Assembly: GCA_038065175.1 (NCBI GenBank)
Contig: JBBTRN010000022.1
Location: 1 to 48,395 of the forward strand
Source of the DNA: Patescibacteria group bacterium
GTDB lineage: Bacteria; Patescibacteriota; Doudnabacteria; UBA920
DNA length: 48,395 nt
Direction of reading: 5' to 3'
Shown here: in pieces, positions 20,357 to 21,770 of the stretch
How the letters are laid out: the number at the start of each line of letters is the position of its first letter
Position numbering within the stretch: the first letter of the stretch is position 1
Notes under the pieces: model-generated
Seen by the model: only the letters and a program-made list of their open reading frames with translations
Database searches by the model: none
Told to the model about the DNA's origin: nothing
Position numbers and translations under genes: made by a program

Positions 20357-20468
20357 CCAAAGCCTTCCCCGCAAGGGGCGGGTTTTTGGTTTTATAACGG
20401 TTCACTTTTCACAGTGTACTAGTACGCTAGTGCAAAAGGATTAAAACTTTTTCTCCTTAAATCACTAT

Positions 20469-20616
20469 GTTGCTAATGAGCTAAGGGGATGGCAGGATTT
20501 AGAGTCCTGCCGTGCCCTGAACCGTTCTGGTTCAGGGCTGCCGTGATTTGTTTACGGGGTTTTCTTCCCCACTTAGCAACGGCTTTGGAGTTCAGTTGCC
20601 GTTTGCATTCATTAGC
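20469..20616. ncRNA. Highly structured non-coding segment (multi-stem junction with competing helices); strand unresolved
   Basis: Helices found:
- closing helix gttgctaa (20469-76) / ttagcaac (20573-80)
- hairpin ggcagga-tttagag-tcctgcc (20491-20510)
- hairpin gccctgaacc-gttct-ggttcagggc (20514-38)
- hairpin ccgt-N9-acgg (20541-57)
- alternative helix gctaatga (20472-79) / tcattagc (20609-16)
- T9 run at 20622-30. Confidence 0.4.
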
Positions 20617-20639
20617 TTCCTCTTTTTTTTTGCGAAGAC

Positions 20640-20957
20640 CTAAACTGATCCACCTTCAATAGATTCAATCCCGAGCGTTTTGCAAAACGCCTGAAATTGT
20701 TCGCTGTTATGGATTGCGTATCCTTTCGGATGCCGCACCACAATATTGCCGTCTCGGATTGCCAAATACAGTTCTTGGCTAATTGCGCCTGCTTCGCAAT
20801 GGAAGCAGAGCTTAATTTCCAAGTTTCCGTCTTTGGTTGCCCCGAGAGTTGAGAAGGTTGCAAGAACCGCAAGCAAGCCTTTCATTGTTGCAGACGGGTT
20901 GCTATCCAATCCTTCTACTTGCATCTGTCGCGCGACTTCTGCGAGAATTACTGACAT
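20640..20957 (-). CDS. Hypothetical protein (105 aa) in the cassette
   Basis: Strong Shine-Dalgarno AAGGAG 8 nt upstream of the ATG. Contains CFHC. No family recognised. Confidence 0.6.
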   Translation of the reverse strand: MSVILAEVARQMQVEGLDSNPSATMKGLLAVLATFSTLGATKDGNLEIKLCFHCEAGAISQELYLAIRDGNIVVRHPKGYAIHNSEQFQAFCKTLGIESIEGGSV

Positions 20958-20989
20958 TGATTTCTCCTTTTCCTTTCTCTGAACTTGAA

Positions 20990-21436
20990 CTAAAGCCTCT
21001 CTAGCGTTTCCGGCCCACAGGTGTCTAAGTGTAGTCGAGACGTAACAAATCTCAACTTATGCGGGTTGAACAAGACGTTGTAGGCAGAAATCTGATTGCT
21101 TCGATTAACACGGACAGTAGTTCCTTTTGTCCCCCCTTCAACTTCGGCCTTAATTTGAGGGGAGACAACTTCGACTTCCTTTACTTCCCACTCGCCGTCA
21201 CTACGCAAACTTGCAATGACGACGGCTAAAAGTTCCTGTTCGTCGCCGAATATTCCTATGGGTAACTTTTCTCCATTAGCGAAGCTGAGTTTTTTTGCAA
21301 GGGTCAGCTTTTGTACCAGCTGTCCCAAAGTCAGCTTTTTCGGAGGAGGCGGCTCTACATAATTACTATGCTTGACAGCGTTACCTTGCCAACATGCCAC
21401 CCACTCCGTTGTTCCGAATGGTGTCCTTATTTTCAT
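20990..21436 (-). CDS. Hypothetical protein (148 aa) in the cassette
   Basis: Shine-Dalgarno GAGGAAG 2-3 nt upstream of the ATG. No family recognised. Confidence 0.6.
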   Translation of the reverse strand: MKIRTPFGTTEWVACWQGNAVKHSNYVEPPPPKKLTLGQLVQKLTLAKKLSFANGEKLPIGIFGDEQELLAVVIASLRSDGEWEVKEVEVVSPQIKAEVEGGTKGTTVRVNRSNQISAYNVLFNPHKLRFVTSRLHLDTCGPETLERL

Positions 21437-21770
21437 ACTTCCTCGTTTCTTTGCAAGCGAATTTCCAGCACTTTATCGCCTGCGTTTGGAATGTGCTACT
21501 GTGCTGGTTGCTTTAAACATTCGGGTCCTTTTGCATTAGCGTACTAGTACAGTGATGCAAAAGGATGCGTAAAATAACCAAAACAAAAACACCTTCCGCA
21601 AAGGGCCGGGAGGTGTTCAAAACTAATATCTGGTATCTATTACCTAATATCTACATATCAAACTCCGGACTTTGCAGGTTTAGCAAAGCCCAGTTCCAGT
21701 TCTTGTTTAATTTAAATACCGTATTTTTCATACTAGCCCAACTATATACTACTCCGAATCCTTTGTCAAT

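Follow-up and report, generated by a model that had tools for sequence, protein, structure and literature searches.

The 48,395-nucleotide stretch analysed here (contig JBBTRN010000022.1 of a Patescibacteria group bacterium, hereafter the window) carries between gpmI and recJ, beside a tRNA-like gene, two genes of 148 and 105 amino acids, ORF148 and ORF105 (ORF, open reading frame), which a sequence-only reading had described as a two-gene cassette bounded by direct and inverted repeats. Our comparison with related loci indicates that the interval is a minus-strand transcription unit read from the gpmI side, not a mobile element, and we consider it likely that it represents an operon of orphan genes under dual control resembling that of the trp operon, with operators and a leader-peptide attenuator. 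The anatomy of the sequence, its conservation and co-variation, the adjacency of TrpR-family genes in relatives and a trpBA cargo in one relative are directly established and provide the framework for this reading.

Predicted operators and a probable attenuator of the orphan-gene operon

The elements of the control region, with the two further palindromic sites of the operon, are given below in the direction of transcription (Trp, tryptophan).

21757-21790, both strands: predicted operator site 3, with the perfect 16-bp palindrome AGCGTACTAGTACGCT at 21771-21786, 1 nt upstream of the -35 box
21741-21769, minus strand: sigma-70-type promoter of the leader transcript, TTGACA/17 nt/TATAGT, with 11/12 consensus matches
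21651-21731, minus strand: leaderless leader-peptide ORF of 26 codons, MKNTVFKLNKNWNWALLNLQSPEFDM, with its ATG 9 nt past the -10 box
21696-21698 (codon 12) and 21690-21692 (codon 14), minus strand: Trp codons of the leader peptide, the first invariant in the seven-locus alignment
21683-21693 (CUGGGCUUUGC) and 21665-21675 (GCAAAGUCCGG), minus strand: attenuator segments 1 and 2, forming hairpin 1:2, from folding
21590-21615 (CACCUCCCGGCCCUUUGCGGAAGGUG) and 21578-21589, minus strand: attenuator terminator 3:4 and its U-tract, from folding
21526-21565, both strands: predicted operator site 2, a 40-bp palindrome TCCTTTTGCA..GTACTAGTAC..TGCAAAAGGA within the 5' leader
20403-20440, both strands: predicted operator site 1, with core AGTGTACTAGTACGCT at 20413-20428, at the 3' end of the operon

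The core GTACTAGTAC occurs three times in the 48-kb window against 0.01 occurrences expected, and the 16-mer AGCGTACTAGTACGCT, searched for with up to 3 mismatches, is found at these three places and nowhere else in the window. Two palindromic sites had been noted before, at 20403-40 and 21526-65; they are real, with 93% complementarity across 29 nt in a repeat search, and are joined by a third and best one at 21771-21786. Each of the three window sites reads GTACT/AGTAC, that is, two GNACT half-sites in a GNACT/AGTNC pattern, and GNACT is the half-site of the published TrpR consensus TGTAcTnGTnnACnAgTACA (PMC9413887). The inverted GNACT half-sites and CTAG/ACTAGT core of a TrpR operator are both present, at a half-site spacing that differs from that of the 20-bp E. 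coli site.

Our comparison covered 12 loci (the window, L008, L009, L011, L046, L047, L049 and L051-L055), and the TTGACA promoter is kept in all of them. Eleven related loci have the same core ahead of TTGACA, at a distance of 4-5 or 16-17 nt, and L051-L055 each carry one or two GNACTAGTNC palindromes between trpR and the TTGACA promoter. In L009 and L054 the palindrome is a variant, GCACTAGTGC (GCACT/AGTGC), which has changed symmetrically and retains the GNACT fit. L011 possesses an equivalent of site 1 at the 3' end of its operon, and a palindrome at the position of site 2 is found in the window only, where, once transcribed, it would also make a long RNA hairpin. These features suggest that the palindromes are predicted operators, apparently of Trp-repressor type. 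A LexA box was ruled out for this motif, which within the window is restricted to this locus and which elsewhere adjoins TrpR genes. Sites 1 and 2 also have outer arms, TGCAAAAGGA, that resemble copies of the operator-plus-(-35) stretch in which TTGACA has become TGCAAA; these arms make no promoter.

We term the leader ORF leaderless because its ATG stands 6-9 nt past the -10 box in the seven leaders that were extracted, and the other five look alike by eye. The first TGG does not vary across the seven-locus alignment and sits just 5' of segment 1, with insertions and deletions in multiples of three, and across the compared loci the leader peptides carry Trp at codons 11-15 in 12/12 and a WW or WxW motif in 9/12. 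A short ORF with codons for what would be the regulating amino acid, placed 5' of segment 1, is the arrangement of a trpL-type leader. Segment 2 has two possible partners, segment 1 and the 5' arm of the terminator. The second pairing, 2:3, is significant in each of the seven loci tested, with z -2.4 to -5.3 relative to shuffled sequences at energies of -9.6 to -18.1 kcal/mol (z -4.4 at -14.0 kcal/mol in the window), and shows compensatory changes, for example in L011 (GACUUUGC) and L047 (CCUUUGCG). The pairings 1:2, 2:3 and 3:4 are mutually exclusive and 3:4 is an intrinsic terminator, again as in trpL-type attenuators. When a ribosome was masked on the first Trp codon during folding, the antiterminator became the minimum-free-energy structure in 7 of the 12 loci, the window not among them, and with the ribosome masked at the stop codon the terminator formed in every locus. 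The hairpin once read as the right-hand boundary of a cassette is, judged from its sequence, apparently the terminator of a trpL-type attenuator. A T-box or known riboswitch was dismissed as an identity for this region, as Rfam gave no match.

Variable cargo and a TrpR-family gene in relatives

Comparison of RecJ places the contig with Candidatus Doudnabacteria-like Patescibacteria, the best species representative (L007, the closest relative) being 63% identical. The order gpmI then recJ is syntenic in 16 relatives, with an intergenic gap that varies. In five of them, the closest included (L007, L013, L016, L017 and L021), we regard the gap as empty because it measures only ~60-170 bp; in others it contains an ORF resembling, by eye, a response-regulator receiver (L018-L020), a large surface protein (L010), metabolic genes (L022) or modules homologous to that of the window (L008, L009 and L011). 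The gpmI-recJ interval is an accessory, variable locus. A metagenome scan with the 22-mer terminator motif retrieved three additional modules (L046, L047 and L049), of which the one in L049 lies at another locus, following murG-murC-murB-hpf and preceding secA, and the control region is present among relatives at both of these chromosomal positions, gpmI-recJ and hpf-secA.

The window, L008, L009 and L011 share one order of elements in the gpmI to recJ direction: palindrome and TTGACA promoter, short hairpin-bearing ORF, terminator, conserved leader, differing genes dependent on a Shine-Dalgarno (SD) sequence, an SD-like AGGAGG and a three-hairpin RNA, with the terminator 25-mer TTTGCGGAAGGTGTTTTTGTTTTGG identical in three of the four. 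Between these conserved flanks the cargo differs in every module-bearing relative, comprising genes for 254 and 94 amino acids in L008, for 98, 63 and 87 amino acids in L009, and for a 331-amino-acid AstE/AspA-type protein in L011, and an all-against-all comparison of the cargo proteins found almost no common family. Homologous recombination in the flanks is the best explanation for such turnover, as seen between the window and L006. In L054, a Patescibacteria-type contig, the cargo (within 948-4750, minus strand) is a 103-amino-acid ORF followed by TrpB (PF00291) and TrpA (PF00290). This trpB-trpA pair stands under predicted TrpR and Trp-leader control, and other trp genes are not visible in the 10-kb locus; by analogy, the presence of trpB-trpA alone suggests indole salvage as in Chlamydia.

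The variability of the locus bears on the proposal that it is a mobile or site-specifically inserted cassette, in which the palindromes would be recombination sites (Xer/dif-like or integron-like), the repeats scars and the tRNA-like gene the target. An empty gap in five relatives with other contents elsewhere, a cargo that is different in every module, a control region at two loci and palindromes at both operon ends in the window and L011 could all be accommodated by such a cassette, and tRNA genes are classic integration targets. Nevertheless we consider this explanation unlikely. The earlier observation that no recombinase is recognisable holds for all ORFs of the gap and extends to all 12 modules, a repeat search found no fragment of the tRNA-like gene duplicated as a direct repeat, and a perfect palindrome has no polarity and could not direct ordered excision. 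L008 carries the module with one palindrome and L047 with none. The direct repeats of about 20 bp are real, although gapped (~17 matched positions and 4 gaps by eye) and unreported by the repeat search; rather than cassette boundaries they are the hairpins of two terminators, the right one belonging to the attenuator, and the inverted T-rich tails are the U-tracts of these terminators. No composition contrast with the backbone emerged, as the GC content of the interval is unremarkable. The module matched nothing in blastn comparisons with plasmids and phages, and its terminator pattern nothing in viral contigs; the palindrome-plus-promoter pattern gave 20 matches in viral contigs, all lacking the leader and TrpR, which we treated as chance. 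Integron cassettes and Xer-dependent dif modules likewise place variable, mostly promoterless genes in a fixed expression slot with imperfect palindromes at the cassette borders, but here an integrase or Xer gene is not nearby, attC-like or 28-bp dif-like architecture is lacking, the palindromes have an apparent regulatory partner in TrpR and the conserved flanks are RNA elements. Of the suggestion of a horizontally acquired or mobile module, the accessory, variable character thus survives and mobility does not, as no evidence for it was found.

The probable regulatory partner was recognised in relatives. In L046 and L049 the palindromes adjoin a divergent PF01371 (Trp_repressor) gene, which scores 63-70 bits, and its homologues occupy the hpf-secA context in five further contigs (L051-L055), making seven related loci in which a TrpR-family gene adjoins the sites. 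Aligned to E. coli TrpR, these proteins keep R54, I57, V58, A80, T81, T83, R84, G85 and S86 but have S in place of T44 and E in place of S88, and their recognition helix reads VATxTRGS, which is of the TrpR type. Since the sites persist as the cargo is exchanged, and since a TrpR-family gene stands beside them in seven loci, the earlier suggestion of operators for one of the cassette proteins appears correct as to operators and mistaken as to the protein.

The HisR/YerC branch of the family shares PF01371, a 20-bp palindromic operator and frequent autoregulation (PMC9413887), and its members are reported to have lost most Trp-contacting residues (PMC9413887). The proteins beside GTACTAGTAC sites differ from this branch in having an ATVTRGS helix and most residues of the Trp pocket, and the HisR consensus cacTTTAnnnnnnTAAAgtg does not match the sites. 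A TrpR-family paralogue within the window (46624-47157, minus strand; 177 amino acids, PF01371 at 65 bits) does resemble the branch, with a YerC/HisR-like helix (..PTISRVQ.., containing the YerC-like ..TISRV..) and palindromes of its own. This second palindrome family, TTAAATACTGTACAGTATTTAA, is found at 46606-46627, 47176-47197 and 5116-5137: one copy overlaps the promoter of the paralogue, an exact copy follows its stop codon, and the third, also exact, lies 41 kb off. The paralogue and these palindromes look like a separate small regulon, and the cognate TrpR orthologue of the operon is therefore probably encoded outside the window. A literature search for TrpR or tryptophan synthase in Candidate Phyla Radiation (CPR)/Patescibacteria gave no paper.

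Cargo genes, RNA elements and the tRNA-like gene

The remaining features of the locus are as follows.

21437-21525, minus strand: conserved 5' leader before ORF148, with hairpin L2 CCAGCAC/GUGCUGG and L3 GCAGGCGA/UCGCUUGC just before the SD sequence GAGGAAG
20990-21436, minus strand: ORF148, first cargo gene, an orphan of 148 amino acids
20640-20957, minus strand: ORF105, second cargo gene, of a small family, 105 amino acids
20459-20648, minus strand: conserved 3' structured RNA, with SD-like AGAGGAAG, hairpin A (loop ..CUCCAAA), hairpin B (GGGG/CCCC) and onward
within 20459-20648, minus strand: second part of the 3' structured RNA, with an A-rich linker, a window-specific extra hairpin, hairpin C (GGCAGG/CCUGCC) and AUCCCCUUAGC
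20362-20392, plus strand: GC-rich hairpin and U-tract, terminator of the tRNA-like gene
20266-20356, plus strand: tRNA-like gene of Sec/allo-tRNA shape, with 8-bp acceptor stem, 4-bp T stem, 6-bp D stem and long variable arm
~20150-20235, plus strand: small RNA of ~85 nt, with terminator at 20203-20227
20116-20143, plus strand: strong promoter of the small RNA, TTGACA/16 nt/TATACT

The two cargo ORFs exist and, as had been said of them, are unrecognisable: neither matched anything in Pfam, PHROGs, PADLOC or NCBIfam. Billions of proteins were searched by word index and by full HMMER, and for ORF148 these searches returned near-identical strain copies only. ORF105 has one homologue at 85% identity (P0003, on L006), to which the full HMMER scan added one at 38% (P0004), and in L006 the gene upstream of the homologue is an unrelated 170-amino-acid Zn-ribbon-like ORF. 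A TPR match in these searches was rejected as spurious. ORF105 has a ratio of nonsynonymous to synonymous substitution (dN/dS) of 0.23, which indicates purifying selection. AlphaFold2 confidence (predicted local distance difference test) was 56 for ORF105 and 48 for ORF148, too low for a fold search. In a strain-level contig, L005 (1-114, equal to window 21038-21151), there are 17 nucleotide differences, all in the C-terminal part of ORF148 and 12 of them at codon positions 1-2, with ORF105 identical; these reflect either noise at a contig end (coverage ~5) or fast evolution of ORF148.

SD pairing energies of -5.9 kcal/mol for ORF148 and -8.9 kcal/mol for ORF105 are the strongest among the ATG-start ORFs of the window, the others lying mostly above -3.5, and many backbone genes look leaderless because a TATAAT-like box stands 6-8 nt ahead of the ATG; most backbone genes have no SD sequence (for example 15557, 36038-37285 and 45634-46023). 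This pattern, which bears out the contrast drawn in the sequence-only reading, suggests widespread leaderless mRNAs in this genome. It does not point to a foreign origin, since the strong cargo SD sequences are accounted for by genes that sit behind a long 5' leader in a genome of mostly leaderless first genes.

That 5' leader shows the same order of arms and a covarying L3 in seven loci, with the arms assigned by hand. In its equivalents in L008, L009, L011 and L051-L053, L2 reads CCAGCnC/GnGCUGG and the L3 arms fall in the L2 loop and before the SD sequence. A possible H-type pseudoknot of L2 and L3 would lie next to the SD site. Rfam gives no matching family for 21437-21525.

The ~150-nt structured non-coding segment noted previously is real and conserved, corresponding to the 3' RNA at 20459-20648, which nhmmer finds in the window, L006, L008, L009 and L011 only, all of them gpmI-recJ-type modules. 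Its stems have canonical pairs in 74/75 cells and compensatory changes in 10/15 pairs, counted on a hand alignment because MAFFT and RNAalifold mis-aligned them, and its G-U pairs favour the minus strand. The loops read (C)CUCCA(A/C)A, the complement of the strong SD sequences that precede the cargo genes. We dismissed an additional gene at this place, a third one containing an in-frame TGA (a 31-codon call in L006), whether recoded or a pseudogene, as L008 and L011 lack the ATG and the stems co-vary as RNA. The hairpin at 20362-20392, which is the left-hand direct repeat with its T-rich tail, is probably a weak end-terminator for the convergent cargo operon as well. In the hpf-secA-type loci we observed a further conserved non-coding stretch (..CTTTTACTTT..GAGNCNGGAAATTTTGAGTTGA.., at ~12700-12905 of L049 and ~1-115 of L046, both on the plus strand) that ends in a terminator and in L049 has its own TTGACA/TATAAT promoter.

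The tRNA-like gene next to the operon, already suspected from the sequence, matches Rfam tRNA-Sec (RF01852) end to end at 40.9 bits (gathering score 47; E 3e-6), whereas ARAGORN reports nothing at this position. An 8/4 cloverleaf fits the window and its L008 homologue with 95% of cells paired and 8 compensatory pairs, compared with 20-48% in slid controls. The 12-bp acceptor/T branch split 8/4, the extended D stem and a long variable arm as in tRNA-Ser/Sec, with discriminator G, are found as in allo-tRNAs and tRNA-Sec. The anticodon loop is CUGAUAA, and since the window and L008 both keep the loop YUGAUAM, both have anticodon GAU. A covariance model of the gene found no additional copy in 27 sources, and a tmRNA or permuted tmRNA was dismissed, as ARAGORN and Rfam give none and the cloverleaf fits tRNA-Sec. 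In two large IMG/VR "viral" contigs (L056 and L057) the T-arm/acceptor pattern GGTTCGACTCCGCCGNNTTCCG occurs within otherwise different tRNA-like sequence.

The neighbouring small RNA begins with a 17-nt seed (20151-20167) antisense to 20290-20306, the anticodon arm of the tRNA-like gene, with 94% complementarity over 17 nt, and this seed is predicted to be single-stranded in the window small RNA. L008 (5722-5975, minus strand) has the same arrangement, in which both sequences are different and the 17 nt perfectly complementary. Duplex folding of the whole small RNA with the whole tRNA-like RNA gave inflated long duplexes and is weakly informative. Judged by this complementarity, the two could be an RNA-RNA control or toxin-antitoxin-like pair. 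Published allo-tRNAs with 8/4 and 9/3 cloverleaves (Mukai et al., PMC5389517) share the 12-bp 8/4 acceptor/T branch, the long variable arm, the Sec-like D arm and an anticodon reading isoleucine (Ile) codons, the commonest allo-tRNA group being UAU (PMC5389517); they often adjoin accessory modules and are possibly non-translational (PMC5389517). The gene described here differs in belonging to a CPR bacterium rather than to Acidobacteria, in its anticodon GAU and in being paired with a dedicated antisense small RNA, and the word "antisense" is absent from PMC5389517. If functional, an antisense small RNA that co-varies with a tRNA-like gene would represent an unusual control of a non-canonical tRNA.

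A proposed control scheme and its alternatives

From this anatomy we infer repressor binding, a ligand, ribosome stalling and a direction of regulation, which combine into the following scheme. The strong promoter at 21741-21769 would be governed by the adjoining Trp-repressor-type operator, to which site 2 within the leader and site 1 at the 3' end add extra copies, and by a repressor that would be a TrpR orthologue with a VATxTRGS helix encoded beyond the window; in relatives the repressor gene lies between hpf and secA, alongside another copy of the control region, and one such copy would drive trpB-trpA. The transcript would begin nearly at the ATG of the 26-codon leader peptide with UGG at codons 12 and 14. 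When Trp-tRNA is scarce, a ribosome stalled over segment 1 would allow the 2:3 antiterminator to form and RNA polymerase to read through, while with ample Trp a ribosome at the stop codon would mask segment 2 and the 3:4 terminator with its U-tract would form. In the absence of translation, hairpins 1:2 and 3:4 would form. The read-through RNA would carry the leader with its possible pseudoknot, the SD-dependent ORF148 and ORF105, and the three-hairpin 3' RNA.

This scheme resembles the E. coli trp operon in its TrpR-type palindromic operator (ACTAGT/GNACT half-sites) at the promoter, its short leader peptide with Trp codons in tandem or nearly so, and the exclusive 1:2, 2:3 and 3:4 hairpins with a U-tract terminator after the leader peptide. 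It differs in that the leader ORF of the window is leaderless, without an SD sequence and with its ATG at the transcript start, that the operator is a compact GTACT/AGTAC core upstream of the -35 box rather than across the -10 box, that additional operators lie within and after the operon, and that orphan proteins are controlled, with trpBA in one relative only, in a CPR host. Chlamydia trachomatis trpRBA (PMC7755916, PMC6504234) offers a parallel in a reduced, host-dependent bacterium, with a TrpR gene that adjoins trpB-trpA, as in L054, and with tryptophan-dependent repression plus termination control. Here, however, trpR is divergent and not the first gene of the operon, control would be by classical leader-peptide attenuation and not YtgR, and the control region is mostly found in front of non-trp genes.

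Several observations weigh against dual control by tryptophan. The centre of the operator precedes the probable transcription start by ~44 or 57 bp, a position also typical of activators. In the window the minimum-free-energy fold under a stalled ribosome retains the terminator, the antiterminator being of similar strength and not the optimum. The 12 leaders are homologous, so that their Trp codons are not 12 independent observations, and some helices (those of the 3' RNA and L2/L3) were aligned by hand. The Rfam Trp leader RF00513 was absent from both an E <= 10 scan of 19900-21900 and a gathering-threshold scan. The cargo of the window has no visible link to tryptophan, with ORF148 itself holding three Trp residues, and downstream genes from the pathway of the sensed amino acid are found only in L054. 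The TrpR-like proteins are by sequence about equally similar to solved YerC/HisR-type and TrpR structures, so that the ligand is only inferred, and the one PF01371 gene of the window has a different recognition helix and different palindromes of its own.

An explanation slightly less probable than the mobile cassette is that the 150-nt leader is a non-coding sensor, a riboswitch or small RNA with its own terminator, and that the short ORF is there by chance. At the RNA level both hairpin 1:2 and the terminator show conservation, the conserved part of the peptide (WAL..QSP) partly coincides with the hairpin arms, and the C-terminal half of the peptide varies in length, as such a sensor would permit. 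The ATG at the predicted transcript start, however, together with a frame that is open and a stop codon always past segment 2 in the 12 loci, gaps in threes, an invariant TGG outside the hairpin and no match to an Rfam family, counts against such a sensor. The least probable account is a two-gene module that regulates itself, for example a toxin-antitoxin pair, with the palindromes serving a cassette protein. Type II toxin-antitoxin systems typically take the form of small two-gene modules with palindromes near the promoter. The vicinity of toxin-antitoxin loci is also a reported setting of allo-tRNA genes (PMC5389517), but in this case the palindromes stay constant while unrelated proteins replace the cargo, family searches match neither ORF to a helix-turn-helix, ribbon-helix-helix or toxin family, PADLOC finds nothing, and the sites adjoin a TrpR-family gene in seven loci.

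Under trp-operon-like dual control, our best guess is that the cargo proteins provide accessory functions induced by Trp starvation and swapped among lineages by recombination in the conserved flanks. A bolder proposal, which we regard as tentative and on balance doubtful, is that the region is a portable tryptophan-starvation expression slot of Doudnabacteria-type CPR bacteria, present at two or more chromosomal loci, with swapped orphan cargo and, in some genomes, physical coupling to an allo-tRNA(GAU) restrained by a co-evolving antisense small RNA, a pair that would be able to switch the decoding of Ile codons or to act as an RNA toxin-antitoxin. Its chassis may consist of the TrpR operator, the leaderless Trp-codon attenuator, the pseudoknotted leader and the 3' RNA with anti-Shine-Dalgarno-like CCUCC loops, and its cargo would plausibly be host-interaction or scavenging factors for a Trp-auxotrophic symbiont when the tryptophan supply of the host stops.

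CPR/Patescibacteria are reduced, mostly uncultured symbionts in which gene regulation is almost unknown. If the reading of this operon is true, the textbook logic of repressor plus attenuator occurs in these bacteria, in a leaderless form, and a control region that senses tryptophan suggests that the orphan genes are used when tryptophan is scarce. Together, the operator and leader motifs would make it simple to search metagenomes for co-regulated genes.

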